Positions 3,804-53,188 of a stretch of DNA of 64,000 nt are shown here, in pieces. The stretch is taken from the IMG/VR virus record IMGVR_UViG_3300050142_000050, positions 96,001 through 160,000 of that record; one strand, given 5' to 3'. Origin of the DNA: a virus (lineage: Duplodnaviria > Caudoviricetes). Both the position numbers and the translations under genes were made by a program. The notes beneath the pieces were generated by a model, which saw only the letters and a program-made list of their open reading frames with translations, was not told the DNA's origin and searched no databases. How positions within the stretch are numbered: position 1 is the first letter of the stretch; every line of letters starts with the position of its first letter.

Positions 3804-3826
3804 TCTCTTTCACAAGGAAGAACGCT

Positions 3827-4072
3827 ATGTTTGACCCAGACACAGTCATCGTCCAGAATGTTCATCTCATGATCACCCATTTGGGCATCGGTGATGTCGC
3901 TTGGAAACATCGTTCCAGAACTGAGCGCTACAATCCTCTGCGTTATGAGGTACGCATCAAGGTAGGGGCCATCCCCTTCCACTTTAACAAAGACGGAAAC
4001 CTGCTCCTCAAATGGTTCAAGTTCACTCGTCGCATCAAACACGCTTTCAGGATCATCGTGGAATCCTGGTAA
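3827..4072 (+). CDS. Hypothetical protein (81 aa)
   Basis: Start moved to ATG 3827, which follows AAGGAAG, within track ORF 3776-4072. Confidence 0.6.
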   Translation: MFDPDTVIVQNVHLMITHLGIGDVAWKHRSRTERYNPLRYEVRIKVGAIPFHFNKDGNLLLKWFKFTRRIKHAFRIIVESW

Positions 4073-5629: not shown

Positions 5630-6272
5630 TGATAACATCCGCGCACAGGACGTCGGACTGATTGTTTCCCACCTTAGAGAACACTACGAGGGTTGGGTGT
5701 GGTCTATCGGTATATCCGATGAGGGTATCGAGGTGATGATTGCACCTGATGAAACTACACCCAGTGCGGTGGCCAGAATCTTTGCTCGTCATAAAGACGG
5801 ACAAGATGAATTCCGTCACCTATTCCAGCACCGAGCTGTGAACCACACCACTCTGGGTATGTTTGGACTTAATGTGCAGAACGCACTAGAGTCTTTTCTC
5901 GATAACACAAATTTGGTGTATTCTGACATCATCCCTCTGGAGCCAAATGGTCCAGATGGAGACTTTCTGTACGCCAAAATTATAGATGAGCATCAAATTC
6001 CGATGACCGTGGAACGCGCTCTGGCCAATATCCAAATCATCCAGGAGACTACCGAAGGTCTTGAGATCGAAAGACTCTACTTCGGTCAATGCTATCGCTC
6101 ATGCGATGCGTCCATCTACTGGAAGCATCCTGAGTTCGGTGAGGGAGGTTTTGACTGTGATATCAGATCACTCTCAGTATCGGGACCCCTCAAGGAGGTA
6201 ACGACCCTCCTTACTCTTGCATCACGGTGTCCTGAGGTTTTCGAGACGAACAGCTATTCTCATAAAAAATGA
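5616..6272 (+). CDS. Hypothetical protein (218 aa)
   Basis: ORF overlaps the stop of the QueC-like gene. Confidence 0.75.
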   Translation: MKVGDDNIRAQDVGLIVSHLREHYEGWVWSIGISDEGIEVMIAPDETTPSAVARIFARHKDGQDEFRHLFQHRAVNHTTLGMFGLNVQNALESFLDNTNLVYSDIIPLEPNGPDGDFLYAKIIDEHQIPMTVERALANIQIIQETTEGLEIERLYFGQCYRSCDASIYWKHPEFGEGGFDCDIRSLSVSGPLKEVTTLLTLASRCPEVFETNSYSHKK

Positions 6273-6277
6273 AATCC

Positions 6278-6292
6278 CATATCACTCTTATG
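6278..6292 (+). promoter_or_regulatory. Putative early promoter CATATCAC-N5-TG in front of the RNA operon
   Basis: catatcactcttatg matches the recurrent YATATYAC-N5-TG motif. Confidence 0.6.
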
Positions 6293-6347
6293 AATAAATC
6301 GGGATGTCCGACATTGAAAAAATGTTAGTCTGAACGAACCTTATTCT

Positions 6348-6816
6348 GTTGGAAGAGAGTCATCGATCATACCCCCTCTCTCAGAGCCGACCCCACCTCG
6401 GCGATCGGTGATTTCTCTTCCAACCTATTTGACAACCATGGACCATCCCTCCCGAAGGTCAGACCCGTCCCTCGAGGTCCATGGTTGTCAAATGGATATT
6501 CCAGTTTCACAAAGCAGTGCGGTAACGCACTCGCCCTTTTGTGGTCGCAGTCAGGACAACGATCCTGACTAGAGGGTAACCAGAGGTCGTGAGCTCCACT
6601 CGACTACTTGACATGTACACGACCCCCATGTCAGGTGGAAGAATCTTAACGACCTCTGGTTATTCTATACGAGATTCGCACGACGGCTGATGTAACCACC
6701 GGCGGTTGGGCGAAAGCTCGGTACTCGAATGATTCCTCCTGCATGTCGGCTTAGGACACTGCATGTGGGGGTTGTTCCCTCTTCCTCCTTGGAGGGTAGA
6801 GTCGATCGAGTACCGA
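6348..6816 (+). ncRNA. Candidate large structured non-coding RNA 1
   Basis: No credible ORF. Consecutive stems: 6348-6358/6414-6424, 6427-6444/6476-6493 (18 bp perfect), GTAA tetraloop hairpin 6516-6531, 6549-6570, 6577-6590/6649-6662 (14 bp), 6718-6728/6806-6816. Confidence 0.6.
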
Positions 6817-6828
6817 GTACTTATTACT

Positions 6829-6904
<76 letters not shown>

Positions 6905-6909
6905 CAGAT

Positions 6910-7328
6910 TCGGTCTGAGGAGACGCGCCTCTCATCGAGTAGTCGCTGTATATGACACTACTCGCAACAGTGATCAGCAGCTGTAGAAGTCACACCCTCA
7001 CGGTGGTCGAATCTTAGACGTGAGATTCGATAAGAGCTTCAGCTACAACCCCATGGAAACCAGTAGGGCCGCTACTGCGGTGATCGTGTCGGTACGGTAA
7101 CGATGATATAAGTCGCGTCTCTTGTCGCCAGTGCGTAATGTCGCTCTGGCGGAGTCGTGCATCATACGACCCTCCGATAATCTGGATTTCCATGGGGATC
7201 CTATTCCCTACCATTTGATGGATAGACGTAGGGGTGTACCTTATTAACCATCTAGGTCTTCCTGCTCACCGGGGTGATACCGAAAATAAGTCGATCGGTT
7301 TATCCGGTCGATTAGGGTGAGCCATTTT
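6910..7328 (+). ncRNA. Candidate large structured non-coding RNA 2 (possible pseudoknot)
   Basis: No credible ORF. Stems 6936-6942/6958-6964, 7007-7016/7021-7030, 7049-7063/7182-7197, crossing helix 6918-6927/7114-7123, and terminal stem 7264-7270/7316-7322 followed by CATTTTT. Confidence 0.55.
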
Positions 7329-7351
7329 TGAGTCTAGTGCAGGAGAAGGTT

Positions 7352-7729
7352 ATGGCCGATATCAAACTGACAGACTCCGCAGAAGCTAAACGCGAGCTGC
7401 GAAACAAGAAAACCTATGAGCTCTTCAAGAAGCTGGTCAATATGTCAGCTTCACAGATCGAGAAATTCCTCGAGACTGATGAGAGTAAGAAGGTAGGCTT
7501 CAAGAAGGAAGGTAGTGATGAGTCAGTAGGACATCAGTCTGGACGACGTATCATCAAGATCCTACGTACACCTAAGTCACAGCTCGATGAGAGTGACTAT
7601 GCCCACATGCGTAAGGTATGTGCATACATCACACGCCATCTGGCTCAAGGTGGTCCTGAGACAAAAAAGGAAACGAGCCGCTGGCGCTATTCCTTGATGA
7701 ACTGGGGACATGATCCCCTCAGGAAATAA
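7352..7729 (+). CDS. DUF3140-family protein
   Basis: LVNMSASQIEKFLETDESKKVG, ESVGHQSGRRIIKIL, DYAHMRKVCAYITRHLAQ and SRWRYSLMNWGHDP follow the DUF3140 consensus; ATG 7352 follows AGGAG. Confidence 0.85.
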   Translation: MADIKLTDSAEAKRELRNKKTYELFKKLVNMSASQIEKFLETDESKKVGFKKEGSDESVGHQSGRRIIKILRTPKSQLDESDYAHMRKVCAYITRHLAQGGPETKKETSRWRYSLMNWGHDPLRK

Positions 7730-7737
7730 ACGAATAT

Positions 7738-7825
7738 GGAGGGTACTGAGGTTGGCTCCTCACACGGATTTGAAACCCGTAGGTGCGTTAATTCGCGGAT
7801 GGTTCGATGCCATTGCCCTCCGCCA
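7738..7825 (+). tRNA. trnS: tRNA-Ser(TGA), long variable arm
   Basis: Acceptor GGAGGGT/GCCCTCC, discriminator G plus CCA, anticodon loop TTTGAAA, variable hairpin GCG-TTAATT-CGC, T arm GATGG-TTCGATG-CCATT. Confidence 0.85.
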
Positions 7826-7950
7826 CAGATAAGGATCTCGTGCTCTCCTTTTCCGTCCTTCATGTGCCTCTACGGAGGCCGTCGGGCGATGTACTTCGGC
7901 ATTACGATGCCGATGGCTTAGAGCGCTATAACGGGATTCTTTAGGGTGAC

Positions 7951-7991
7951 GGGTGAGGGCTTACGCCCTCACCCTGATCTCCTTATTTTTT
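7951..7991 (+). terminator. Terminator closing the RNA operon
   Basis: gggtgagggc-ttac-gccctcaccc followed after 8 nt by TTATTTTTTTT. Confidence 0.75.
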
Positions 7992-8039
7992 TTTATCATA
8001 TGGTGCACTCGCACCTGACAATATCGGAAGGGTATCGAC

Positions 8040-8294
8040 ATGGCTTCTTCTCCCGAAATCGATCAGCTTCAGATGCAAGTACAAGTACTCTCAGATCAAG
8101 TGAGTACCCTCGCACAACGTCTGAGCGGACTCGAAGCTGGAGCTGCGGCGGCTGACATCTCGCGCGGTGCGACCGATCAGTACATCGTCAATCGTATGAA
8201 CAATGACGATGCAGCTGACGCATCGACCTTCGCCGTGATGAGCAGCAAGATTGCTCATCTGGAAGCACGTCTCGCCGGCGCCGGTATCGCATAA
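8040..8294 (+). CDS. Small coiled-coil protein (84 aa)
   Basis: GGAAGG ribosome-binding site, heptad-like N-terminus LQMQVQVLSDQVSTLAQRLSGLE, and its own terminator. Confidence 0.75.
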   Translation: MASSPEIDQLQMQVQVLSDQVSTLAQRLSGLEAGAAAADISRGATDQYIVNRMNNDDAADASTFAVMSSKIAHLEARLAGAGIA

Positions 8295-8302
8295 TAACAA
8301 GT

Positions 8303-8348
8303 GGAGGTGGGGTAAAATCCCCACCTCCTATCACCTTATTTTTTTTTG
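8303..8348 (+). terminator. Terminator
   Basis: ggaggtgggg-taaaat-ccccacctcc followed by a displaced TTATTTTTTTTT. Confidence 0.75.
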
Positions 8349-8376
8349 TATTGATTGATCTCAAAAGTTCAATCTT

Positions 8377-8637
8377 ATGGTTCAATCCTGGACTAACTTC
8401 ATCAAAAAGTTTTCACATATGGCAATCCAGCTAGGTAGGCGATATCGCCAACGGGGGGCACCCGGCTTCGTCACAGTCAAAGCTACCCTGAATCGACATG
8501 ATCAGGACTACAAGGAAGGGTTCCGGTTCCTCGGATCGAATGGTCGTACCTATCGTGAAGATGGTACCTACAGCTCCACGCGTGGAGCTATTTCAGATCA
8601 CGACCTCATCGAGTGGGTCGATCGTCCTACTGAGTAA
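8377..8637 (+). CDS. Hypothetical protein (start at 8377 or 8419)
   Basis: Short ORF between two terminator hairpins. Confidence 0.6.
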   Translation: MVQSWTNFIKKFSHMAIQLGRRYRQRGAPGFVTVKATLNRHDQDYKEGFRFLGSNGRTYREDGTYSSTRGAISDHDLIEWVDRPTE

Positions 8638-8655
8638 CTCGATACTTTTACAAAA

Positions 8656-8686
8656 TGACAGAGGGGGCGATGAGCCCCCTCTGTCA
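8656..8686. terminator. Bidirectional hairpin between convergent genes
   Basis: tgacagagggggc-gatga-gccccctctgtca, 13-bp stem. Confidence 0.65.
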
Positions 8687-8692
8687 GTGTAG

Positions 8693-11600
8693 TTATCCGT
8701 TGAAGAAGATATCGACGAGCTTTGCTTTTCCGACCTCCATGTTCCTCTCTGCGATACCTAGGAGAGGACTCTTCACGATACGGTTGATGATCGAGGTGAG
8801 TGAGAACAGAGCACCCACAGGTACACCCGATTCCGTATAGTGCGATTCTTCGGAAACGTGTGAGATGATTGCCTTATTGGCATTACCGAAACAGAGCTTA
8901 TCTCCAGCTTCAGCCGTGAGAGTCTCTTGGATCATGTATTCCAACAAAACAGTATCCTCAGTGAACTCGATACCCTTGTAATAGGTACCAGGTGCCACAT
9001 ATCCAGGACGCTCAGAGATCTTCGAACCTGGGATAGCAGAGAGAGCAGCGTTCTGTTGACGCTCTTCTTTCTCATATACCTTCAGGATCGATTTGAGGCT
9101 GTCTGAGAGCTCATTTCGGTCACAGGCGTAAAGTATGCGCAGCTTACTTACAGTGCCTGTATAGCCCGCTGTAGGCGTCTGACGACTAAGCTTAGCCATC
9201 AGGTCCAACTTAGACTGCGTCTGGTAGAGTTCAGTCTGCACCATGACGTCATCGCTGATCACACATAGAGGAGTGGTCGTATCGACATGATCACCAGGTT
9301 TGACAGTCGATATGAGGATGGCATTCTTCTGAGTGACCACTGGACACTGGTGAGCAGGCGTCATATTCAGACGATTAGCCATAGCGCGAGTGATCTCGCA
9401 GGCGTCTTCGTGATTACTCCCTTTTTCACACAGAGCCACCGTTTCGATGATACCATGCTTGAACGTCACTTGCTTGGACATCGGATCGGGTACGAAGAAC
9501 CCATCGTTGTAGATGAGGATATCTCCTTCCTTGATCTTCTCTCCCACATGGACATTGACCTTCCTTGTTTGGAGGAGGAATGCCCCTGAGATCTGCGAGT
9601 AAGCATCCTTGTAGGAATAAGACTTCACTTCACCAGGAGTAGTGGTACCGATCAGTTCCAGACGGATGTAGTAGAGACAGCTCTCGCTACCATCTGAGAG
9701 AGCTTTCACCAACTGACTCTGCTTACGCACCAAATCACGATCAGGGATACCATCCACCGAATCACATCGTAGACGAGATACCACCTTACCATAGGTGGAA
9801 TTCGTCAGAGCGAAGATACCGTTGGCTGGATAAGAACCCAGTGACCGCTCGGTGACCAAGATACCGACGAAGTTGTGATCCTTGCGATACTTGTCGATGA
9901 TGGGGTCGGAATAAGGAAGAGTCAGCTTCCGCAAAGGATCGATAGGCTTATCAGCATATCGGACCCGCAGTACCTTAGCTTTCTCATCGATAGACTCGAC
10001 TACGCCATCTGCTTCAGCAGCGATAGCGAATGTGTCACTGACCAGATGAGGAAGAACCGCATCATACCCAGTACGCACAGAAGCTGTCTCACCATCTCCA
10101 TGGTTAGGTACATAGTGAGAGATCTGGATGCTCAGGTAGGAAGCACGCTTACCATCGTCCGTGGTACCACCAGGCATCACGTTAGTACCGATGGCGAGCA
10201 TCTGAGGAGCTTCTAGCTCATCACCCTCCTTATACGCCTTAGGGATACCGTGGACGTTGTCGATGTTAGGAGATGCCGACAGATAGGAGGTGATACCTAC
10301 CTTACCAGAGTCAGGTACAGCATCAGAGACGATACCTAAACCATCCTTGGGGTAGATACGAGACTCCTGTGTGATAGCATCCGCAGATCGACCGCCACGA
10401 CCCGTGAAGGTGTAGTTAGCAGACTGTTTCACTTCATGGATTGGATTGATCGTGTCGTTGATCGCCACAGTAGCATCCTGGACGATCTTCTGGAAGACAT
10501 CTTCAGGATTGATCGAGAATGACTTCTTACCATTGGTACGACGCCACCTGGAGAATTCCTTGAAGATAGACTCATAGACGATCCCATTCCACCGTTCAAA
10601 CTTACGGAAGCGGTGGTTAGCGATAGACGCCGTATCGATCGCGTAATAGTCGGTGACCATCATGTTTGCACGGAGTAAGAGAGCTGACCACACGGTCGGC
10701 TCGCTCATATCCCGCAGGACGGTCTCGGTGATGGGATCAACAAAGAAATCGACGAATTGTGTAACCGTCTGGATAGTCCCAGGCTTCATCTTCTTGGACA
10801 CCAGTACCTTTGTGTAAGGAGCTGGGAAGTTCAAGTCCTTGAAGTTGATATCCTTGAGATCAGCCCAAGTCAAACCGGCTGCGATCAAAGACCGCTGGAG
10901 GGGATATCGGTTAAAGACCAAGAAACCATCAGCGAAGCGGATCGAGATATCATCGATCCCGATCACGGGTCGGTTACCACTCGAATAGAAACGATACTGG
11001 AGATTGATCTTCTTGAACAGATTCTCCAGACCCATCTCATATCCCAAGGTGAATACCAGAGGGATCTTCTCACCCGGGAAACTGACGAGCGTGTATTCAT
11101 TAACCTGCTTTTGGAGACCAGCCTCACTACCCAGTACATCGACCAAGAGTTGGTTGAAGGACTTCCAATGAGAAAGCTCCTCACCCTTGTGCGATACTTT
11201 ACGAATGGAGTTCTTAAAGTCCCAGAACAGGAGCTCCATATCACTCGTGATACCGACAAAGATACCAAACTTCGATGACAGAGATGTCGCCACCTTTTGG
11301 ATAGCCGACATCCGATCAGTGATAGGTGCACCATCCTGACCGAAGTAGAAGGTCATACCTCCCACAGTGATCTCAGTGAAGCCCTTACTGATCGCTGAAT
11401 AGTCATAGGGGAGAGGCTTTACGGGATCTTCAGCCTTACCCACCTGAGCAGTGAGCATACCTTCTGCGCGCAGTTTCAGGATATGAGCGATGATCACGTG
11501 TTCGAAACTATTACGCTTCGATTCCACACGTGATACGAGCACCTTCCCGAAGTGCGAAGAGAGGGATACTTCACTATCACTGATCTTACAGATCGGAAGA

Positions 11601-13303
11601 GTGACAGCCTGGCGAGTCAGGATATACTCAGTACCACTGATCGTGATCGTACCATCCTTCGAGATGGTAGGACGAGAGAACTTGATGGTGTGAGACCTAC
11701 CATCGATATCCCGCATGGACACCTTGTAGGTGGTCGTCTTATCCATCTCAGTGCTGTGATGTTCTTCCTCGATATGAGTGATGAACAAACCATGCTTAGC
11801 CGTAGAAGCCAGTACCTTCGCCAGATCGGCATGGTACATCTTCTCCTGATAGGCCTTATCGATAGCCACCAATGTGGACTGCTTGTGAGACTCCTCAGGA
11901 GCTCCTGTCAAGAAGTCCATCTTCTTGGGCTTAAAGCTCTCAGGAGGCTGCTCCTGGATCAGCTCACTCAAAGTCTTACCACCGATGGTTACATTGAAGT
12001 GATTGTCCACTAGCTCTCGTTTACGAGCTTCCTTCTTGGGTTCGACAGCCACCTTCTCAGCGACCACCTTGTCCACATGCGTACGGATGTGATCTTCGAG
12101 CTTAGTATCCTGCTCACCCAATTCGATCGGTCTTACCACCACCTGCGATACAGGAGTGGTATGGTCGTCATGGAGATAACCACCAGCAGCATCAGCTGGA
12201 TCATGCTTTACCGCGAACTTGTCTTCTTTGGGGAGCTCTTTGACCTTCTCCTCGATAGGAGCACTCGTCTCACTGTCGATGATACCCTGCTCTTCGATCT
12301 CACCTGTCTCTTCATGAGGATCAGTCTCCATATCGATGAAGTCACCACTGGGATGACGCAGTGTCATGAAGTGTGTGTAAAGCTTCCCAAAGAAGCCAGG
12401 GTCATTAGAGAACTCGATGATGTCACCCAGGTTATAGATGACTGCCTTCCTACCCTTGTACAGGACGATGTTGATCACCTTAAGGACATCCGTCGGAATT
12501 CGCTCCAGGAGCGACGAGGAGCGCAGGTCCCGTAAGGATGGGTGATCCTTACCCAAGAGCTTAAGATCCGTCTTATACGGCGTCACATTCAACCTACGGC
12601 TACGTCCTAGGACATATCCCAAGATATGCACCAAAGGAAACAGCGTGGGATCATGACGCAGTTTAGCCATGGTCGAATTCGACAGCTCTTTTGCAGCTGC
12701 GACAAAAGCAGCCTTCGTCGTCGTGCCCTCATTCTGAGGTAGGAACAAAAAGTGCTGACATCCAGTACCGATCGATTCGATCGAGTTCAAGATAGTGCGG
12801 AAGATCACATCGAACTTGCGATACTCCTCATTGACACCCGGCGTCTTGAGATACATAATCGGCGAATAGTCGACACGCGTGATCGTCCCAGGCATGGTCC
12901 CGATAGTGCGAGGTACCATGATCTTCTTATAGTCACGGTGATGCTGATACCAATAACTGATACCCGCCATCATCGGAGTAGGACGGAAGACCAGATTCTC
13001 CTTCACTGGGAGAGGCTTCGAATGCTCATCTGCGATCTGATTGTAGATCAGGATATAGCGAGGAGCCTTAGCCTCATCGATCGGACTGAAGTGAGGAGTA
13101 GGGAGACAATCACCCTCAGGTTCGAGAGTCTCCATATTTCCGATAGTGTGGACCACCGACCCGATAGGCATGGCCAGCTCTGTGAAGTCATCGATCTTCT
13201 TAGGAGCCTGTCCTATACGCCGGGTATGAAACATCGTGTAGAAGCGCTGGTAGGAGATGCGCATAGCCTCCATACCCAGCCCGGTAAAGGGGTTAAAGTC
13301 CAT
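8693..13303 (-). CDS. rpoB: Virion RNA polymerase beta-like subunit, N-terminal part (phiKZ gp178-like)
   Basis: 1536 aa with diverged beta motifs PDSGKVGI, TTDDGKRA, GSNHEDA and AGDKL...NKAII; lacks the beta C-terminus, which is encoded separately at 55823. Confidence 0.9.
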   Translation of the reverse strand: MDFNPFTGLGMEAMRISYQRFYTMFHTRRIGQAPKKIDDFTELAMPIGSVVHTIGNMETLEPEGDCLPTPHFSPIDEAKAPRYILIYNQIADEHSKPLPVKENLVFRPTPMMAGISYWYQHHRDYKKIMVPRTIGTMPGTITRVDYSPIMYLKTPGVNEEYRKFDVIFRTILNSIESIGTGCQHFLFLPQNEGTTTKAAFVAAAKELSNSTMAKLRHDPTLFPLVHILGYVLGRSRRLNVTPYKTDLKLLGKDHPSLRDLRSSSLLERIPTDVLKVINIVLYKGRKAVIYNLGDIIEFSNDPGFFGKLYTHFMTLRHPSGDFIDMETDPHEETGEIEEQGIIDSETSAPIEEKVKELPKEDKFAVKHDPADAAGGYLHDDHTTPVSQVVVRPIELGEQDTKLEDHIRTHVDKVVAEKVAVEPKKEARKRELVDNHFNVTIGGKTLSELIQEQPPESFKPKKMDFLTGAPEESHKQSTLVAIDKAYQEKMYHADLAKVLASTAKHGLFITHIEEEHHSTEMDKTTTYKVSMRDIDGRSHTIKFSRPTISKDGTITISGTEYILTRQAVTLPICKISDSEVSLSSHFGKVLVSRVESKRNSFEHVIIAHILKLRAEGMLTAQVGKAEDPVKPLPYDYSAISKGFTEITVGGMTFYFGQDGAPITDRMSAIQKVATSLSSKFGIFVGITSDMELLFWDFKNSIRKVSHKGEELSHWKSFNQLLVDVLGSEAGLQKQVNEYTLVSFPGEKIPLVFTLGYEMGLENLFKKINLQYRFYSSGNRPVIGIDDISIRFADGFLVFNRYPLQRSLIAAGLTWADLKDINFKDLNFPAPYTKVLVSKKMKPGTIQTVTQFVDFFVDPITETVLRDMSEPTVWSALLLRANMMVTDYYAIDTASIANHRFRKFERWNGIVYESIFKEFSRWRRTNGKKSFSINPEDVFQKIVQDATVAINDTINPIHEVKQSANYTFTGRGGRSADAITQESRIYPKDGLGIVSDAVPDSGKVGITSYLSASPNIDNVHGIPKAYKEGDELEAPQMLAIGTNVMPGGTTDDGKRASYLSIQISHYVPNHGDGETASVRTGYDAVLPHLVSDTFAIAAEADGVVESIDEKAKVLRVRYADKPIDPLRKLTLPYSDPIIDKYRKDHNFVGILVTERSLGSYPANGIFALTNSTYGKVVSRLRCDSVDGIPDRDLVRKQSQLVKALSDGSESCLYYIRLELIGTTTPGEVKSYSYKDAYSQISGAFLLQTRKVNVHVGEKIKEGDILIYNDGFFVPDPMSKQVTFKHGIIETVALCEKGSNHEDACEITRAMANRLNMTPAHQCPVVTQKNAILISTVKPGDHVDTTTPLCVISDDVMVQTELYQTQSKLDLMAKLSRQTPTAGYTGTVSKLRILYACDRNELSDSLKSILKVYEKEERQQNAALSAIPGSKISERPGYVAPGTYYKGIEFTEDTVLLEYMIQETLTAEAGDKLCFGNANKAIISHVSEESHYTESGVPVGALFSLTSIINRIVKSPLLGIAERNMEVGKAKLVDIFFNG

Positions 13304-13565: not shown

Positions 13566-13936
13566 CCTGATGTTCAGCAGTGCTCGTTAGACACTACCCG
13601 TCCTTTCTTCCTTAGGAAAAGAGGACTGCTTACACTCTCGTGTAAGAGCAGACTATATCTTCACCCTCTCGTTGGAGTAGGGTGCTCCCCATTTCGGGAT
13701 CACTCGATCCCTACACCGTGGCAGGTGGTTAGTCGTTGAGCACATCGCATGACCTATAGAGGCTTTAGCGACTTCGCTGCGGATTTTCTCTATCTCTGTA
13801 ATTTTTACCATCTCGATGTGATTAGCATCGCCCCTCACTATCTAGTTTCCTAGGTGGGTTGGTATACAGAGCCTAACGAGACGTTCCCGCAATTAGAGGA
13901 GATTCACTTTACCATCTCTGATAAAGAGGACATCGC

Positions 13937-15268
13937 TTATTGCATAAAACACGACTTTACTTCAATGACAGGAAACTTCTTTAGGTCCACATGCTGGATA
14001 TTCCAACTCCTCCAGCGCATGGTACCATCACTCGACTTAAGCATCCGGGACATTACCGCCGGATCACAACGCTTCTCTCGATCCTCATTACACCACTCCG
14101 TCACACTGGTGTAATATCTCACTACTCCATCGCCCCCTACGATATTCAGAGGACGATCCGTCGCCTTAGTCCGATCGAAGATATCTAAGACCTCCTCAGG
14201 ATATACAGGCCACTTCACGAGCTCGCCTTCTTCTGCGAGGCGGAAACCCATACCCTTCCAAGGTATGACTGTCTCATACATCAACAGACGATCGAGCACA
14301 TAGTGACGCATCCCATACTTCACCGCTACCTCAGAGCGATTCCCCATGGCGAGCACTCGATGGGTCTTGAGATCCATCACCACGATTGACTTATCGGCCT
14401 TATCGCCGATACGACTCGGATTACGAGACAACTCCTCCCAACTGCGCGGATCATCAGCCTTCTTAAAGATATACCCATGGAAAGGCTTCCCATCAGTAGT
14501 CCTCCGCTCCACCGCCTGGTGAGCACTTTGAGGAGACACACCGAGGAGCCTCGCCATCTCATGGTATCCACCCACCACGAACTCCTGCCCATCACTCAGC
14601 CTCCTGAGGAGTATCTTCTTCTGAGTCTCACCCCGCACACCATCAGTGAAGGCATGCATGTTGTTATCAGAGTAAGTAGCCCACTCGAGATTTCGGATGG
14701 TGTTATTGAGCTTATTGGAGTCCTTATGGTTGACCGTAAGATGTTCAGTGTCCAGAGGATGATCCAAGAAGGTGAGAGCCAACAGTCGATGGAGACGTTG
14801 TTGCTTACCATCGATTTTAACAGTAGTCTCCATATATCCGTTTCTCGGAGAGACACCGACGGGATACTTGTCGACGTACCGTCGCAACTCAGGACCACGT
14901 TCTACAATCCTTATTTCCAAGGACACCCCAGGTACCTTGAACCACACTCCCAGTGGGATGTGTTCTCCTATCCTCTCACGGACTCTATACTGACGATAAT
15001 CCCATTCGAGATTTTCTATCCGGAGATCATCACGATTCCCATTTCGGAAAGACACCGACAACCACTCAGGATCCTTGTCGGTCGGCTTATACGTTATCAG
15101 CATCAGCCTATCGAGCGGGTGCGAAGAAGGCTTGTGACTTTTACCACGGATCTTAACTGCACGTCGACAGTGTCGACTGATGTATTCTTTCTGAACCTCT
15201 CCGGTAGATATCAGCGTGACGACTGCATCTTCGGAGATGTCATATAGAGGATTTGTTGGAATTCTCAT
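13937..15268 (-). CDS. Intron-encoded HNH homing endonuclease with C-terminal NUMOD1/IENR1-like repeats
   Basis: LHRLLALTF...VNHKDSNKLNNTIRNLEWATYSDNNMHA is an HNH core; three following repeats resemble NUMOD1 helix-turn-helix units. Confidence 0.9.
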   Translation of the reverse strand: MRIPTNPLYDISEDAVVTLISTGEVQKEYISRHCRRAVKIRGKSHKPSSHPLDRLMLITYKPTDKDPEWLSVSFRNGNRDDLRIENLEWDYRQYRVRERIGEHIPLGVWFKVPGVSLEIRIVERGPELRRYVDKYPVGVSPRNGYMETTVKIDGKQQRLHRLLALTFLDHPLDTEHLTVNHKDSNKLNNTIRNLEWATYSDNNMHAFTDGVRGETQKKILLRRLSDGQEFVVGGYHEMARLLGVSPQSAHQAVERRTTDGKPFHGYIFKKADDPRSWEELSRNPSRIGDKADKSIVVMDLKTHRVLAMGNRSEVAVKYGMRHYVLDRLLMYETVIPWKGMGFRLAEEGELVKWPVYPEEVLDIFDRTKATDRPLNIVGGDGVVRYYTSVTEWCNEDREKRCDPAVMSRMLKSSDGTMRWRSWNIQHVDLKKFPVIEVKSCFMQ

Positions 15269-15306: not shown

Positions 15307-15373
15307 AAAATTTTCACACCTTTTTACAAGGGTATTTTCCTGTCAATTATCGTGTTCTATGCACTAAGGTCAA

Positions 15374-16900
15374 ATCGCCGTCATGATCGGCACCCATAGC
15401 TGCCATCTTACTCGGATGGACCATGGCTGCATCCATGAATGCATTCTTGAGAATTGGGTATTGCTTCAGGGTGGTACTGAAACTACCACCAGAGACCAAG
15501 TCCACCAACTGCACCGCTCGGGACGGTGTCGTCGATACCACATGGACTCTACCTGGATATGTAGAACCCTGTTCAATCACCGGATAACGGGTGACTAGAC
15601 AGTGTGCTCCATTACTGCTCACCTCAGCTACGATGTAAAGCATCTCAGCATAGGTGATAGGTCTGATCTTCTTCTTGTCGATAGGACGAGGCCATCCGTT
15701 CTCCAAGTCGACGATACTGCGGAACAGTGCGATTTCATCACCCTCGTCATATACGAAGAGGAGTGCATATTTGTCACCTGTTATATCCTCGATCATGACC
15801 GGTGAACGTCGTAGTTCCACGTTTCGGAAATCGTTGAAGATATCCTCATTACCAGAGGTGGTCATCCACTTATCACGGACTGGCGAATCTACTCTGGTGT
15901 ATACCAGCTCGAAAGTCTTTGGATCACTCAATGCCACATTGGTAGTGGTCTCGGCTTTGAAGATAGGAGTCGAGAAGATCTGTCGCAGATTGAAGGCTGC
16001 GATAGGAGTGAGTCCCTTGACAGTCTGGTAGATACCCACCATCACGTCGTCAGCTCCCAGGAGCTGTACGTCTTCTGGGGAGTTGGCTAGGAAGGGAGCA
16101 GCGGTGATCACATTACGAGTACCACCAGCCACATGGCGGCGTGCGAAGTTGCTCTGGATGAAACCGCGCTTACCATCGAGGAAGTTCTCGATATATTCGT
16201 AGATCTCCTGAGCTTTGGACTGGAGCTGCCATCTCACTGGATCATAGAGAGGTGAGTTGGATCCACGAGGGATAGCTCTGGTGTACATCTGTAGGGAATT
16301 GTAGAGCTTGTTGATCTCATCCTGGATCAGTCGACCAGAACTATCATTGGCGATATCACGCAGACCTGCTGGTATCACGATATGCCGATCAAACTCTGTG
16401 ATCTTCTGATACTTGAGGATCACCTCGATGTTTTCATCTCGTTTGCTAGAACCAGTGCGAGGGAACTCGATTTCATGGAAGTGACTCATGAAGAAGGAGT
16501 AGCCAGTATCGGCTTGATCATTCTCAAGAGGATCACCTGTGAACCGAATGAAGTCATTCTTGACACGATCAAAGATCGCATACTCAGCGCCAGACATGAT
16601 GTCCTTATAGAGGCGCTTGAGCTTACAGAGGATGGCGAAGATCTTGGGATGGAGGATCCTGGTACCCAGATCGATCCACCCGAATTTGAGCATGCGATCA
16701 GGGGAACCTACTTGTCCGAAGATCTCTTCGGAGTAAAGACCTTCTGCATGGTAGATAGAAGTCGATGGTTCAAATACCATCGAGCTAGTTACCTGACGAG
16801 CTCTCTTCTCATGGATGAACTGATTGACATCCATGATTCTGATATTGACAGGATCATCGATTGTCCCGATATCCCCAGGTAGACGTTCGGTAGATACCAT
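15374..16900 (-). CDS. rpoC: Exon 1 of the virion RNAP beta' N-terminal subunit (phiKZ gp180-like)
   Basis: GKRGFIQSNFARRHV, TRYPVIE and catalytic-type MGADHDGD motifs. The track ORF runs 8 further codons into the intron. Confidence 0.9.
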
Positions 16901-38450: not shown

Positions 38451-39021
38451 GTAAACTCATCATTTCTTTGACGAGGAGCATGATTGTTTCATTAAGCTCC
38501 CCTTCTTTCCTCTTGGGCATCACCTTAGCTCGATCGTAGAGCTTTACCCATTCGTCATGCGGCATGTGGTGGTACACATCGGATACAGTGACACCGAACA
38601 CACTCTCGATCGGGTGTGACTCGAATGCCTCACAGATCTGGGTGAACAGATCTTTCCGTCTTAGATGAGCAGCTGTAGGCTCAAAGAAGCCTAGCATCTT
38701 TTCCAATGGGTTTGTGACGCCTTCAGGATAGATTCCCAAGATGCGAGCATTCATATCCTTACGGAAGAAGTCCCACTGGAAGTTCTCAGCTATACGGTTG
38801 GGGTCAGATACCCCTCGGTACGACTGAGACCTTCTCATCTCGTCATAAGTGTTCCACCACTCTTTCTCGGTATCAGCATTTACCTCTTTCGAGAATACTG
38901 TACCGCTGCGGTAAAAAAAGCGGAGAACGGATCGAATGTCAGGAGGCCAGAGGGAGTGTCCTCGGAGTGACCGCACTTGGGGCAGGCCATCGAGGGATAA
39001 CCGACATAGGTGATCTGACAC
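38434..39021 (-). CDS. Hypothetical protein; true start uncertain, probably downstream of 38880
   Basis: The C-terminal roughly 135 aa look coding; the first 47 codons overlap the upstream gene. Confidence 0.55.
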   Translation of the reverse strand: MSDHLCRLSLDGLPQVRSLRGHSLWPPDIRSVLRFFYRSGTVFSKEVNADTEKEWWNTYDEMRRSQSYRGVSDPNRIAENFQWDFFRKDMNARILGIYPEGVTNPLEKMLGFFEPTAAHLRRKDLFTQICEAFESHPIESVFGVTVSDVYHHMPHDEWVKLYDRAKVMPKRKEGELNETIMLLVKEMMSLRAGGI

Positions 39022-40439
39022 TTGTCGACATACTCGCGCATCCTGTTGCGCACTTCATCGCCGTAGCGGTCATCCGCCTCGAGGAGTGCGTATGCGACAG
39101 CTTCACGAGTATCGACCGAGATCCAGCGCGGAGGCTGTTGCTCACCACGGATGACCTCTTCGACCTTCTTCTCAGCCTTCTTCACCCAGGGACCATAAGC
39201 CCGAATGGCTCGCAGGTTGATCAGAGTGTTGAGCGCAGCTGCGTTGTCACCACGGACTTCCTGGACCACCTGAGTGAGGAAAGATTCACCATCCTCCAGA
39301 TGCTCGCGTACGGAAGGTACACGCATCGTGAAGCGATGATTGCCAATCTCGATGACTTCTCCATCGAAGGGATACTTCTTCTGAGCATCGAGAATCTCAG
39401 ATGAGGTATGCTTCTTCGACGAGAAGTGAGCACCCGACATGAACGTGATGACCTCAGGAGGAATCGCCGTATGACGAGTCAGGATCATCTTGCGCAGATC
39501 GGCCTTCAGTGAATGAACGTGATCGCACGCTGGGATATCCTTCTCAGGATCACCCCGATTCGTACACGGAATACGCCAACCATCATAACCGTTGGGCCAC
39601 ATCGCATCGGCCATCGCCATGTAGAGATGTGCCAAATCCGGCATACGAATCGTGCTCAGCAGTAGCTCACGTTGGTTGGCCTGATTGAAGCTCGATGCGA
39701 CGATCTTGTCCAGGATCCAACGTACGCCGATCTCACGACCGAAGAAGCTATTGTAGAAGTGGTAGTAGAGACCATCTTCATTGGCGAACGTGCGCTCCTC
39801 ATTGGCCAGATTGATGACCAATGCATCCGACTCAGAAGGCACTGGGACACGGATGTCCACAGTCATCGCCGAGTTCCATAGAGGCACACGACGGACGACT
39901 CCCTTCTCATGGAGCATCCATGCGGTCAGTGCATCTTCAGCAGCCGGCTGATAGATACCCTGCTCAGAGAAGCGAGACACCAGATCCTGGATACCGATGT
40001 TGCGGCCATCCGACGACACTCGACTCGTGGGAGCGGCTTCGCCATCGGCCTTGATCTTGTTCAGGAAGTCTCGCTGACGTCCTTCCTCAGCACTCTCGTC
40101 ATCGATCGCCTGAGCGATGATGTTCTCGTGACTACCCGTCACCAGGACACGTGCGGCGACAGTCTCGGGTGACGTACGCGCCGCTGCTATATCCAGGATG
40201 TTGGCCAGAGTCTCAACAGAGACATTGGTGAGTACGATGACAGACGGATCGTAGGCGGAAGTACTGCGAGATTGTTCAGTGATCTCCTCTTCAGGTTCTT
40301 CCTCCTTCTTTTCAACAGGAGAAGTACCCAGGTCGAGCTCTTCGTCATCGACATACCCAGGAGTGGGTTCCGGCGCAGGAGTAGCGCTGACATTCAGAGC
40401 ATCCTGCTCTTCAGGAATGCCCTCTTCATTTACGTTCAT
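38880..40439 (-). CDS. Baseplate hub assembly-like protein with Cys clusters
   Basis: ATG 40439 overlaps the previous stop (ATGA); acidic N-terminus, IPCTN...CDHVH and CPKCGH motifs as in T4 gp26-like hub assembly proteins. Confidence 0.55.
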   Translation of the reverse strand: MNVNEEGIPEEQDALNVSATPAPEPTPGYVDDEELDLGTSPVEKKEEEPEEEITEQSRSTSAYDPSVIVLTNVSVETLANILDIAAARTSPETVAARVLVTGSHENIIAQAIDDESAEEGRQRDFLNKIKADGEAAPTSRVSSDGRNIGIQDLVSRFSEQGIYQPAAEDALTAWMLHEKGVVRRVPLWNSAMTVDIRVPVPSESDALVINLANEERTFANEDGLYYHFYNSFFGREIGVRWILDKIVASSFNQANQRELLLSTIRMPDLAHLYMAMADAMWPNGYDGWRIPCTNRGDPEKDIPACDHVHSLKADLRKMILTRHTAIPPEVITFMSGAHFSSKKHTSSEILDAQKKYPFDGEVIEIGNHRFTMRVPSVREHLEDGESFLTQVVQEVRGDNAAALNTLINLRAIRAYGPWVKKAEKKVEEVIRGEQQPPRWISVDTREAVAYALLEADDRYGDEVRNRMREYVDKCQITYVGYPSMACPKCGHSEDTPSGLLTFDPFSAFFTAAVQYSRKR

Positions 40440-41299
40440 TCCATCTGATCCTTTTTCATAGGAGCTATATAAACAGCATTGGGACGCAGGAGTATCATGC
40501 TCCATCCCTCACCGATGACTCGGTGTAATAACCGATAGGCACTACCGCTATCGTGGACGACGAGTAGTTCTTCACGGATGACGGGATGGGGTAACTTCTC
40601 CATGTCCTTGGTGTAGATGGTGTCCACACCTCTTGTTAATCTGGGAGAGCATGTGAAGGAATCATCCTCTGCGAATTTGACTTCGACAGGGATAGTGTTC
40701 TCTTCATCATTGTGTTTGAGAGCCATCACCTTATCAGTTTCACGAGGCTCGAGATAGGGGCGATACATAGCGCACCATGCTCTCACCATCTGAAAGTGAT
40801 AGAGACTATCGATAGCTAGTGAGTAGCGAGTGATGACCTCTCTTCCCACTTTGTTAAACTTCCGAGTATAAGCGCCACCGTATTTGTCAGTGATGACTTC
40901 ATCCTCGAAACTCTCACCTTTAGTCTTACCCAAGGCAGAGATCTGATCACGGATGTTCACGACGAGAGACTGCTCCTCATCATGACTCATGCCGTATATC
41001 TTACTCATGTACTTGTCGACTGTTTCCTGCAAGACAGGATCTGTGATTTTGATCATAGCGATCGTGTGGTCAGAAGCTCCATAGGTGAAGCTCTCCTCCG
41101 GTGATGATGACATGAAGTATAGATCATGATCAGCACCTAGATTACGAAGGATGTAAGGGATACGTCGCTGCGTGGTGCGCTGGAAGATAGTGCGGAAGAT
41201 ATCGAAGTCATCACGCTTGGGGACTTTAGGTTCCTTAGGAGTGGTAGACTTCTTCTTTTTGGAGGAGACGACAGGGGTCTCACTGATGAGTTCTTCCAT
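40436..41299 (-). CDS. Hypothetical protein (about 287 aa)
   Basis: ORF in operon; start 41299 or 41329. Confidence 0.7.
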   Translation of the reverse strand: MEELISETPVVSSKKKKSTTPKEPKVPKRDDFDIFRTIFQRTTQRRIPYILRNLGADHDLYFMSSSPEESFTYGASDHTIAMIKITDPVLQETVDKYMSKIYGMSHDEEQSLVVNIRDQISALGKTKGESFEDEVITDKYGGAYTRKFNKVGREVITRYSLAIDSLYHFQMVRAWCAMYRPYLEPRETDKVMALKHNDEENTIPVEVKFAEDDSFTCSPRLTRGVDTIYTKDMEKLPHPVIREELLVVHDSGSAYRLLHRVIGEGWSMILLRPNAVYIAPMKKDQME

Positions 41300-46114: not shown

Positions 46115-46153
46115 TCATTCTCTATCAAACCATGGTCGCCCTATAGGGAAAAT

Positions 46154-46196
46154 AAAACCAGAATCAATTATTTTCAACACTATATCACCACAGTGA
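46154..46196 (+). promoter_or_regulatory. Putative strong early promoter with upstream AAAACCAGAATCAA element
   Basis: aaaaccagaatcaa-N6-tcaac-N2-tatatcac-N5-tg, duplicated at 49154-49196. Confidence 0.75.
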
Positions 46197-46248
46197 AGTT
46201 AAGGTAATGAATAGTTCGTTATCTCAATTTCATCAAGGAGAATGTCCC

Positions 46249-46458
46249 ATGAAGATTCTGCACAAGCTCTCGATGAAGGCCAACATCGCAACGCACTCGC
46301 TGATCTCGAGCACTAAGACTGTGGTGTCGTCCTACAAGAACGATCCCACGTTCCGCTCCAATGTGAACATGATGGGTATCGCCTTCATCTATGGCGCCGC
46401 GACATCACACAACTACCACACTCGCAAAGCCCGCAAGGCTGCGAAGAACAAAGCCTGA
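46249..46458 (+). CDS. Small basic early protein (69 aa)
   Basis: AAGGAG ribosome-binding site before ATG 46249. Confidence 0.7.
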   Translation: MKILHKLSMKANIATHSLISSTKTVVSSYKNDPTFRSNVNMMGIAFIYGAATSHNYHTRKARKAAKNKA

Positions 46459-46469
46459 TCAAACTGGCG

Positions 46470-46509
46470 TCCTACGTGGTGTGGGGATATTCCCCACACC
46501 ACTATTGAA
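46470..46509 (+). repeat. Internal-loop hairpin element 1
   Basis: TC-CTAC-gtggtgtgggga-tat-tccccacaccac-TATT-GA. Confidence 0.8.
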
Positions 46510-46538
46510 ATCAGTTATACACCTCAAGGAGAATCAAC

Positions 46539-46727
46539 ATGTTTGGTATCAAGAAGGCTATAGTCAACGCCTCGCAAGTCAAGAATCACATCAGAGGTGA
46601 CATCGAACTCCGCATCAGAGCCACTGATGCATTTGCTGCCTTCGGTGAAGGCTTCGGTGTCGGTCTCATCGCATCGATCCCAGTAGCGATCGCATTCATC
46701 ACCATCGCCAAGAAAGCCATCAAGTGA
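46539..46727 (+). CDS. Membrane microprotein (62 aa, C-terminal TM)
   Basis: AAGGAG ribosome-binding site; FGVGLIASIPVAIAFITIA-KKAIK. Confidence 0.8.
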   Translation: MFGIKKAIVNASQVKNHIRGDIELRIRATDAFAAFGEGFGVGLIASIPVAIAFITIAKKAIK

Positions 46728-46732
46728 CTATC

Positions 46733-46775
46733 TTCCTACGGACTGTGATCTTGTCCTAATCACAGTCCTATTGAA
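46733..46775 (+). repeat. Internal-loop hairpin element 2
   Basis: TTC-CTAC-ggactgtgat-N9-atcacagtcc-TATT-GAA. Confidence 0.8.
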
Positions 46776-46805
46776 CATAGTTATCAAAAATCAAGGAGAA
46801 CACCC

Positions 46806-47237
46806 ATGTCCACCATCGCCTGCTTCTCACCCAAGATCGTCCGTCAGGGTAATAAGCATATCGTTATCATGAACCCCTTCGCGAAGCCCGCTAATGTGGG
46901 TCGTCGATTCGTCGAAACAATCGGATACACCGAAACGAAGGATCTCCTCTCGCTCAACTCGTACGATATCGAAGAGCGTGAGTTCGAATACTTCTCGCCC
47001 TCCTACCAGTACGCTTATGCTGAGTTTATGGAGCGTCCGGATGCTAAGGAGATCCTGGGTCGTATCATTGAAAATGCTATCCACCTCAACGCCAAAGAAG
47101 CTCGTGCTCACATGACTCACAACAACGCCAGTGAACCGATATACAACACCGACTGGTCGCAGTTCACGATCTCGATCGACACTCTCTACCAGATCCATGC
47201 ACAGACTGCCGAAATGGTAGTCGACTCATTCAAGTAA
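46806..47237 (+). CDS. Early hypothetical protein (143 aa)
   Basis: AAGGAG ribosome-binding site. Confidence 0.8.
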   Translation: MSTIACFSPKIVRQGNKHIVIMNPFAKPANVGRRFVETIGYTETKDLLSLNSYDIEEREFEYFSPSYQYAYAEFMERPDAKEILGRIIENAIHLNAKEARAHMTHNNASEPIYNTDWSQFTISIDTLYQIHAQTAEMVVDSFK

Positions 47238-53137: not shown

Positions 53138-53150
53138 AAAATAAGGATAG

Positions 53151-53180
53151 TAGGTAGTGTCCCGCGAGGGACACTACCTA
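53151..53180. terminator. Bidirectional hairpin between convergent genes
   Basis: taggtagtgtccc-gcga-gggacactaccta. Confidence 0.7.
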
Positions 53181-53188
53181 TATCTCTA

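Follow-up and report, generated by a model that had tools for sequence, protein, structure and literature searches.

A predicted tRNA-coupled hairpin-array RNA with C-rich loops in a chimallivirus-like jumbo phage

Closest described RNAs

The cuckoo RNAs of Alphaproteobacteria (RSs0680a-d/CcsR1-4, alpha-r14) consist of two to four neighbouring hairpins, each 24-50 nt long and free of multiloops, and every hairpin loop carries CCUCCUCCC (PMC4615179). C-rich loops are an established mark of sRNAs that pair with ribosome-binding sites, of which S. aureus RNAIII and the cuckoo RNAs are examples (PMC4615179). We analysed a 64,000-nt stretch of phage DNA (the window) that contains a hairpin array reminiscent of these RNAs: like the cuckoo RNAs and RNAIII, it consists of adjacent hairpins with C-rich, anti-Shine-Dalgarno (SD)-like loops and is predicted to be co-transcribed with a neighbouring gene. 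Unlike the cuckoo RNAs, the array has loops that differ from one another and main hairpins of 71-103 nt with stems of 18-21 bp, and it comprises seven domains over ~480 nt, is phage-encoded and is coupled to a tRNA. Membership of the cuckoo family was rejected: CCTCCTCCC occurs 0 times in 6290-6828, and the seven domains measure 22-103 nt, two of them being branched, compared with the 24-50-nt hairpins of the family. No Rfam covariance-model match to cuckoo or AbcR RNAs was obtained for 6200-7400 at E up to 10. The array may function as cuckoo-type RNAs do, though it is no member of the family.

GOLLD and ROOL are large (0.5-0.8 kb) non-coding RNAs of phages and prophages, which are encoded beside tRNA islands, adopt multi-junction pseudoknotted folds and self-assemble into multimeric RNA cages (PMC12286853). 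The array is likewise phage-encoded (249.6-kb record) beside a tRNA gene, tRNA-Thr lying 11 nt downstream, and this tRNA is placed between two structured segments, as tRNAs are in the linker of GOLLD (PMC12286853). Unlike GOLLD and ROOL, the array is predicted to fold as hairpins like beads on a string and not as a multi-junction structure. Membership of these families was rejected, as no covariance-model match was obtained at the gathering threshold in the window or at E up to 10 in 6200-7400.

The tRNA gene cluster of phage T4 encodes small stable RNAs (species 1 and 2, or RNAs C and D). In the jumbo phage 201phi2-1, an sRNA is encoded immediately upstream of a tRNA (PMC11512511). Judged by context, these RNAs are the closest putative functional analogues of the array, which is also a non-coding RNA candidate next to a phage tRNA and could also be released by tRNA processing enzymes; it differs from them in being several times longer and in having long stems and C-rich loops. 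Early transcripts of phages are processed at RNase III hairpins of the T7 R1.1 type. The array similarly presents double-stranded stems of ~20 bp between functional units of a predicted early transcript but, unlike the R1.1-type hairpins, its seven hairpins follow one another directly, uninterrupted by coding units.

The host phage and the predicted transcription unit

The window corresponds to bases 96001-160000 of a 249,638-bp record from an uncultured virus of leaf litter, the DNA of which is present in ~20 leaf-litter metagenome runs. By its sequence, this virus is a chimallivirus-like jumbo phage. It encodes a split multisubunit RNA polymerase (RNAP), with matches to the PHROG 'RNA polymerase beta subunit' at 8693-13303(-) and 15347-16900(-) and a group I intron between the two matches; such split subunits are typical of phiKZ-like, nucleus-forming jumbo phages. 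It shares ~35% identity in one RNAP subunit with the nearest cultured phages, and 48-56% identity in another core RNAP subunit with the nearest metagenomic or sequenced relatives.

No ORF-free gap of the genome is larger than the one that contains the array (6273-7327, 1,055 nt), and no ORF of at least 60 aa was found in it. The second-largest ORF-free gap (7730-8692) comes directly after, and 92% of the remainder of the genome is coding according to a rough gene call. The GC content of the hairpin-array region is 51%, similar to that of the genome. The gene upstream of the array (218 aa) is an orphan, as IMG/VR, GenBank phages and a set of 5.8 billion proteins yielded no relative.

Phage-wide signals were found by k-mer enrichment in intergenic regions. 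The promoter motif, tCATATTAC-N5-TG, has 18 exact CATATTAC cores, every one of them on the genome + strand, and most precede a gene start by 17-500 nt; a PWM derived from these 18 sites gave scores of at least 13 bits on the + strand only, the - strand maximum being 11.7 bits. An early-type variant of this motif, CATATCAC-TCTTA-TG, is present at 6278-6293 on the + strand (PWM 18.0 bits), 55 nt upstream of the first hairpin domain, and places the predicted transcription start near 6292. In jumbo phages that encode their RNAP, an AT-rich motif conserved near -10 upstream of operons is the early promoter of the virion RNAP (vRNAP), and middle and late promoters are not predictable bioinformatically (PMC7598289). 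Since the shared, conserved AT-rich motif at 6278-6293 matches this rule for vRNAP early promoters (PMC7598289), we infer that the array RNA is an early transcript. In two related phages, TATATTAC heads tRNA/non-coding islands (L010, position 1681; L003, 23055, on the tRNA strand). Another gap of the window with a promoter variant at its head (46115-46805) was rejected as a similar RNA, as it contains two small ORFs with AAGGAGAA ribosome-binding sites.

The promoter variant is followed by an A/U-rich, weakly structured 5' leader (6294-6347, + strand; fold z = -1.45), which ends in a CCUUAUU box (6339-6345). In terminators of the phage, CTATCCTTATTTTT comes after a GC-rich hairpin whose 5' arm is of the GGAGGGG type and whose 3' arm is of the CCCCTCC type. 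The first full terminator of this type past the array is found at 7948-7994 on the + strand (GC hairpin, then CTCCTTATTTTTTTTT). Because there is no full terminator between 6293 and 7948, the array, tRNA-Thr, a second structured segment, the DUF3140 gene, a tRNA-Ser-like sequence and a third short structured piece look like one transcription unit. CTTATT, the core of the terminator tail, occurs at 6340, 6820 and 7240 in the 1,055-nt gap (0.17 expected, P ~8e-4), and the first two CUUAUU boxes (6340, 6820) exactly bracket the hairpin array. These boxes are taken as candidate punctuation, that is, as putative pause, weak termination or cleavage signals.

The second box is contained in the 10-nt spacer ACUUAUUACU (6819-6828, + strand), as read from the sequence, which separates the array from tRNA-Thr(UGU) (6829-6904, + strand; ARAGORN; Rfam RF00005, 69.6 bits), a tRNA with an encoded CCA. 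Since the tRNA starts 11 nt past the final hairpin of the array, RNase P would generate the 3' terminus of the RNA; this terminus is predicted at the spacer, by RNase P cleavage at 6828/6829 or by a weak terminator. Downstream of the tRNA, the second structured non-coding segment occupies 6905-7327 on the + strand (z = -4.8 on the + strand, -2.7 on the - strand; loop C 17%). The DUF3140 gene (7352-7729, + strand; Pfam PF11338, E = 9e-36) is the sole protein gene of the unit, and its product has its best bacterial matches in Sphingomonas and Methylobacterium (~60%). It is followed by a non-canonical tRNA-Ser(UGA)-like sequence (7738-7825, + strand), detected by relaxed ARAGORN only, the 3' end of which (GGTTCGATGCC...CCACAGAT) parallels the 3' end of tRNA-Thr. 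An origin of the array from decayed tRNAs was rejected, as its alignment to tRNA-Thr and to the tRNA-Ser-like sequence was no better than that of shuffles (47% and 23%, respectively, were as good); no extra tRNA model match was found in 6200-7400 at E up to 10.

Searches for relatives of the array were made in several collections. Rfam gave no RNA-family match for the array at the gathering threshold over the whole window, and cmscan of 6200-7400 at E up to 10 returned only the tRNA and three chance-level matches. When 6280-7330 was compared by blastn (word size 11) with 50,697 phage records, the tRNA part alone matched; an exact 17-mer of the stem of the second hairpin was absent from IMG/VR, and the exact tRNA-Thr sequence was found in none of the representative genomes. 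The phage DUF3140 protein has its closest counterparts in Sphingomonas and Methylobacterium, and for this reason 301 Sphingomonadaceae genomes and one Methylobacterium genome were searched; they gave nothing beyond chance matches of 21-26 nt. Related phage contigs (L002-L005 and L010-L017) were fetched via relatives of DUF3140 and of the vRNAP; nhmmer aligned DUF3140 and its 3' flank in these contigs and found no array-like sequence. Contigs L010-L015, the DUF3140 of which is 68% identical, contain long gene-free folded stretches around tRNAs (z = -6.3, -6.7), with loops that are not C-rich, and the L010 tRNA (3836-3912) is enclosed by a 12-bp helix of its flanks. A relative whose DUF3140 is 85% identical is present in the ENA sample ERZ27249320. 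The tRNA/DUF3140 module differs in position among related phages, QueC being directly next to the vRNAP gene in L002 and L003, which suggests that the RNA/tRNA/DUF3140 module is mobile within the clade. Four contigs (L006-L009) are identical to the window across the array region, 19 further places were grouped as similar, and two DNA runs showed no difference in 6348-6816. RNA runs that share words with the query (two, 5% of sampled words) do so in tRNA parts only and are thus silent on expression of the array.

Fold, strand and loops of the array

The + strand fold of 6340-6825 forms seven adjacent domains (H1 to H7) with hardly any spacer, in agreement with a first-pass annotation of this DNA, which had proposed at least six stems, and has an energy of -224.1 kcal/mol. 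That annotation had also suggested a comparison with dinucleotide shuffles: these reached -152.6 +/- 6.1 kcal/mol, which gives z = -11.75 for the array, and none of 100 was as stable. When domains were folded separately, z was -5.4 to -6.8 for H1, H2, H4, H5 and H7, -2.9 for H3 and -3.3 for H6. Genome-wide folding in 200-nt windows was uninformative because such windows cut through long hairpins, and a global fold of 6290-7995 was rejected, as it contained implausible long-range pairs and disrupted the tRNA.

H1 (6348-6424, + strand) has a basal stem of ~21 bp (12 bp, a bulge, and 9 bp including a U.G pair) and two small arms with the loops AUACCCCC and CCCCACC. An interrupted helix of ~20 bp had been proposed here, and it is present, 6348-6358 pairing with 6414-6424 and the helix running onward to ~21 bp with one bulge. 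Its energy is -35.8 kcal/mol (z = -6.6) on the + strand and -31.5 kcal/mol (z = -2.95) on the - strand. H2 (6425-6495, + strand; -35.9 kcal/mol, z = -6.5) is a perfect 20-bp stem (6425-6444/6476-6495), which contains and extends the 18-bp helix initially described, 6427-6444 being 100% complementary to 6476-6493; its apex of 31 nt is mostly open and contains UCCCUCCC and GUCCCUC. The next two domains are smaller: H3 (6507-6544, + strand; -16.9 kcal/mol, z = -2.9) ends in a GUAA tetraloop, and H4 (6549-6570, + strand; -11.5 kcal/mol, z = -5.4) has 8 bp and a 6-nt loop. H5 (6573-6666, + strand) is made of a basal stem of ~21 bp, an internal loop CUCCAC, an upper 12-bp stem and the loop UACACGACCCC, with energies of -46.1 kcal/mol (z = -6.8) on the + strand and -36.9 kcal/mol (z = -3.6) on the - strand; the 14-bp helix reported earlier at 6577-6590/6649-6662 proved to be the core of a 21-nt, 86% complementary pairing (6570-6590/6649-6669). 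H6 (6675-6714, + strand; -18.4 kcal/mol, z = -3.3; -14.1 kcal/mol on the - strand) is interrupted and has a UAAC loop. Finally, H7 (6716-6818, + strand; -52.5 kcal/mol, z = -5.5; -41.8 kcal/mol on the - strand) is formed by complementary arms (6717-6735/6799-6817) and has a 13-bp closing stem, an extension and two arms, of which the CCCUCU/GGAGGG arm presents the 8-nt apical loop UCCUCCUU (6783-6790). H1 and H7 are branched, and domain sizes range from 22 to 103 nt. Four basal helices are ~20-21 bp long (H1, 12+9; H2, 20 perfect; H5, 18+3; H7, 13+6), so that H1, H2, H5 and H7 each present about two helical turns (~20 bp) of mostly uninterrupted dsRNA, the length typical of RNase III substrates.

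The - strand of the array also beats its shuffles (z = -5.9) and is 27 kcal/mol weaker than the + strand. The + strand is favoured by 4-11 kcal/mol in each of H1, H5, H6 and H7, and H2, H3 and H4 are equal on the two strands. There are 20 G.U pairs in the + strand fold. In the helices common to both strands, the wobble positions in register number 12 for the + strand and 6 for the - strand, a difference that is not significant (p = 0.12); the assignment to the + strand therefore comes mainly from context, the neighbouring genes, both tRNAs, the promoter motif and the terminators being all on the + strand.

The predicted loops contain 35% C (0.354) and 9% G. Because MFE folding leaves surplus C unpaired whenever C exceeds G, loop C was compared with that of shuffles, which was ~3 sd lower (0.305 +/- 0.017). 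Runs of at least three C are about twice as frequent as expected from the genome (9 versus 4.4), and CCTCC occurs at about five times the genome rate (3 versus 0.6 expected). The loops of structural RNAs are usually A-rich, which makes loops rich in C uncommon. Loop C was 12-19% in 6905-7327, in 7826-7995 and in the structured segments of a related phage, the array having about twice as much, which indicates that the C bias belongs to the array and not to the folding method. The enrichment of the loops in C is thus real and moderate in size.

Among the unpaired runs, seven have CCC, CUCC or CCUC in them (unpaired probability 0.79-1.0); these include AUACCCCC, CCCCACC, AUCCCUCC, AGACCC, UACACGACCCC and UCCUCCUU. 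Most of the C-rich stretches that the first-pass annotation had placed in loops and junctions are therefore predicted to be open. Two exceptions were found: UUCCUCCU (6733-6740) has an unpaired probability of 0.04, and only part of UUCCCUCUUCCUCCUU (6775-6790) is open, its first half being the stem that presents UCCUCCUU, itself unpaired at 0.94. The same annotation had called the loops anti-SD-like, and this description holds for UCCUCCUU, which contains CCUCCUU and has 7 nt in common with the 16S anti-SD; it is complementary to AAGGAG, which precedes genes of this phage more often than any other SD hexamer. The C-rich loops are also similar to the 3' arms, likewise C-rich, of terminators of this phage, and CCCCACCTC is common to the loop at 6391-6399 and to the terminator at 8303-8328 (at 8318-8326). 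This likeness could fit two opposite readings, either decayed half-terminators (junk) or pairing with the G-rich 5' arms of terminators.

Proposed function and rival explanations

The description that best suits this element is a new, tRNA-coupled RNA built as a hairpin array, encoded by a jumbo phage under a predicted early promoter and unique so far; its fold is unusually stable. The stability of its fold, the composition of its loops, the lack of coding potential, the match to the promoter motif and the adjacency to a tRNA are direct observations, and it is likely that a real non-coding RNA is transcribed from the + strand together with the tRNA. Regarding its role, the best explanation, to which we give a probability of about 0.3, is tentatively that of an early non-coding RNA, cut from a tRNA precursor, which would act via its C-rich loops on G-rich, SD-like sequences. 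In the model that we infer, which comprises transcription, two processing steps and action in trans, a non-coding RNA gene of ~535 nt (roughly 6292-6828, + strand) would be transcribed from the early-type promoter variant, presumably by the injected virion RNA polymerase, as the 5' part of a unit running to the terminator at 7948-7994. The RNA would fold co-transcriptionally into seven independent hairpin domains. It would be released by RNase P cleavage at the 5' end of the tRNA, perhaps with help from a pause or a termination event at the CUUAUU box after H7, and the four basal stems of ~20-21 bp would be long enough for RNase III to convert it into single hairpins. Acting in trans, the freed RNA would pair through its C-rich loops with G-rich, SD-like sites in host and/or phage mRNAs, and would thereby occlude or titrate ribosome-binding sites early in infection. 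By analogy with known sRNAs, pairing of the loops with ribosome-binding sites is a plausible role.

Targets were predicted by computing duplexes between the loops and 256 phage start regions, with shuffled loops as a control. Two of the seven loops beat shuffled loops: the loop at 6443-6456 reached -24.9 kcal/mol with the start region of gene 38880-40505(-), a value matched by 0 of 100 shuffled loops, and the loop at 6388-6400 reached -21.9 kcal/mol with the gene at genome 25380-26300(-), matched by 1 of 100; start codons are uncertain for both genes. Complementarity of the loops to phage translation-initiation regions is thus weakly suggestive, and we treat the two outliers as leads, not as support. 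Several observations count against the proposed model. Complements of 9-10-mers of the loops are scattered genome-wide and are not enriched at start sites; no single motif is common to all loops; and UCCUCCUU would bind phage SDs as well as host SDs, which raises a problem of selectivity. Base-pairing sRNAs do not usually have perfect stems of 18-20 bp, which would be a target for RNase III; the wobble count (12 to 6, p = 0.12) gives the + strand little advantage, and the apex of H2 pairs better on the - strand. In addition, no homologue turned up in the collections searched, and all recovered phage copies are identical.

In another reading, the array is a cis-acting leader or processing scaffold of the tRNA/DUF3140 precursor with no role in trans, the ~20-bp stems would be RNase III entry sites, the 5' structure would shield the precursor from decay and the C-rich loops would be incidental. 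The position of tRNA-Thr 11 nt past H7 with no full terminator before 7948, the four domains with basal stems of RNase III substrate length (~20-21 bp) and the CUUAUU boxes that punctuate the unit at 6340, 6820 and 7240 are all consistent with such a scaffold, as are, in L010, the tRNA (3836-3912) held inside a 12-bp helix of its flanks and the structured non-coding stretches that flank tRNAs there too. However, a leader or a processing site would require far less than 480 nt and seven domains, and the C bias of the loops is absent from the other structured segments of the unit and from those of the relative, so that a purely cis-acting role is possible but doubtful. It is rather unlikely that the array is neutral spacer DNA, rich in hairpins, which belongs to a variable tRNA island and is transcribed by read-through only, and in which inverted duplications, decayed terminators or scars of mobile elements would have accumulated. 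This would agree with the uniqueness of the array, which had no homologue in any search made, with the variable position of the tRNA/DUF3140 module among related phages, with the young appearance of the perfect 18-20-bp helices, with the likeness of the C-rich loops to terminator 3' arms (CCCCACCTC, for example) and with the non-significant wobble asymmetry (p = 0.12); it accounts poorly for a gap filled by seven adjacent domains almost without unstructured spacer, for a promoter-type motif and CUUAUU boxes that bracket the unit exactly, for the 27 kcal/mol by which the + strand is more stable, and for such a gap in a genome that is otherwise 92% coding (rough gene call).

Phage RNAs that act on host defences are known, such as RNA anti-CRISPRs and pseudo-ToxI. 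With this precedent, an early-type promoter, four ~20-bp helices and many C-rich, G-poor single-stranded patches might point to a decoy, the stems or loops of which would sequester a host factor early in infection (RNase III, a dsRNA- or RNA-sensing defence, or a C-binding protein such as Rho); as the array has no repeated unit, mimics no known RNA ligand, has no Rfam match and offers no nameable partner, we consider a decoy improbable. We regard as similarly unlikely that the array is an early, tRNA-coupled RNA that traps G-rich RNA elements multivalently: once freed by RNase P, with or without RNase III, it would use its varied loops to soak up SDs, leading to translation takeover, or alternatively, given the likeness of these loops to terminator 3' arms, to invade the 5' arms of nascent GGAGGGG-type terminator hairpins and cause antitermination in trans. 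That the sequence works as DNA and not as RNA, be it in replication initiation, in packaging or as hairpins for recombination, is highly improbable: inverted repeats are present on both strands and the - strand also folds stably (z = -5.9), but there are no iterons and no AT-rich unwinding tract, GC is 51% like the genome, the + strand fold contains 20 G.U pairs, and the array sits between the promoter motif and the tRNA within a predicted + strand transcription unit.

Nucleus-forming jumbo phages run their own transcription, and their post-transcriptional RNA handling is little known; to our knowledge, only few small RNAs have been mapped in the cultured ones. Whatever the role of the RNA, the promoter and terminator grammar (CATATTAC-N5-TG; GC hairpin, then CTATCCTTATTTTT) can be used for annotating the clade. 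If the early, trans-acting reading is true, a large, early, tRNA-coupled RNA with stems of RNase III length displaying anti-SD-like loops would join this picture, and phage tRNA islands would be linked to translation control.

Promoters, terminators and CTTATT boxes

A promoter-like motif, tCATATTAC-N5-TG, occurs genome-wide as 18 exact cores, all of which (18/18) lie on the genome + strand. Sites within the window include those at 2212, 53665 and 58021, and variant sites are found at 6278, 46181 and 49181. This motif is probably the early promoter of the phage, used by the virion RNA polymerase (vRNAP). In related phages its counterpart is TATATTAC. In one related phage (contig L010), the tRNA island is headed by a TATATTAC promoter that lies inside an inverted repeat of about 25 bp (L010 1651-1752); this repeat is a DNA-level palindrome around the promoter, because one arm would fall upstream of the transcript.

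Terminators follow a phage-specific grammar throughout the genome: a GC hairpin with a 5' arm of the GGAGGGG type and a 3' arm of the CCCCTCC type, followed by CTATCCTTATTTTT. Terminators of this type are present in the window at 7948-7994, 8303-8347 and 53146-53185 (-). The core of the terminator tail, without the T-run, constitutes a CTTATT box. Three such boxes are present in the RNA operon, the predicted + strand unit that ends at the 7948-7994 terminator (6340, 6820 and 7240; 0.17 expected), and two of the three bracket exactly the hairpin array, the structured RNA with C-rich loops. The CTTATT boxes appear to punctuate the RNA operon.

tRNA genes and the second structured segment

The tRNA-Thr gene (6829-6904) is identical over 76/76 nt to a 556-nt contig from a freshwater metatranscriptome, and no exact match to it was found among 185,579 representative genomes. 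The tRNA-Ser(UGA)-like gene (7738-7825) escapes detection both by ARAGORN with default settings and by Rfam when the gathering score is applied; it resembles tRNA-Thr in its 3' end and trailer (CCACAGAT). In L010, a tRNA (3836-3912) is enclosed by a 12-bp helix made from flanking sequence (3819-3928), which looks like an rRNA-style processing stem.

Immediately 3' of tRNA-Thr, a second non-coding segment (6905-7327) is structured (z = -4.8 on the + strand, -2.7 on the - strand), and its loops are not C-rich. This segment has no match in Rfam, where ribozymes or processing elements would be the nearest candidates.

Other window features, genome ends and host lineage

The seemingly ORF-free stretch 46190-46810, downstream of a promoter variant, contains two small ORFs, each roughly 70 codons long, that have AAGGAGAA ribosome-binding sites. 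Downstream of these ORFs, hairpins of the ACTATCTTCCTAC... type recur at 46727, 47240, 48054 and 48503.

A group I intron (13629-13968, -; Rfam, 75 bits) lies between the two large vRNAP ORFs and adjoins an HNH endonuclease ORF (13937-15268). Outside the window, the two contig ends (88-140 and 249586-249638 of the genome) have about 50 nt in common, among them a terminator. This similarity points to a terminal overlap, so the contig probably represents a complete or nearly complete phage genome.

The DUF3140 gene (7352-7729), embedded among the RNAs, occupies other genomic positions in relatives of the phage. Among bacteria, it is matched best (about 60%) in Sphingomonas and Methylobacterium, a hint at the host lineage of the phage.
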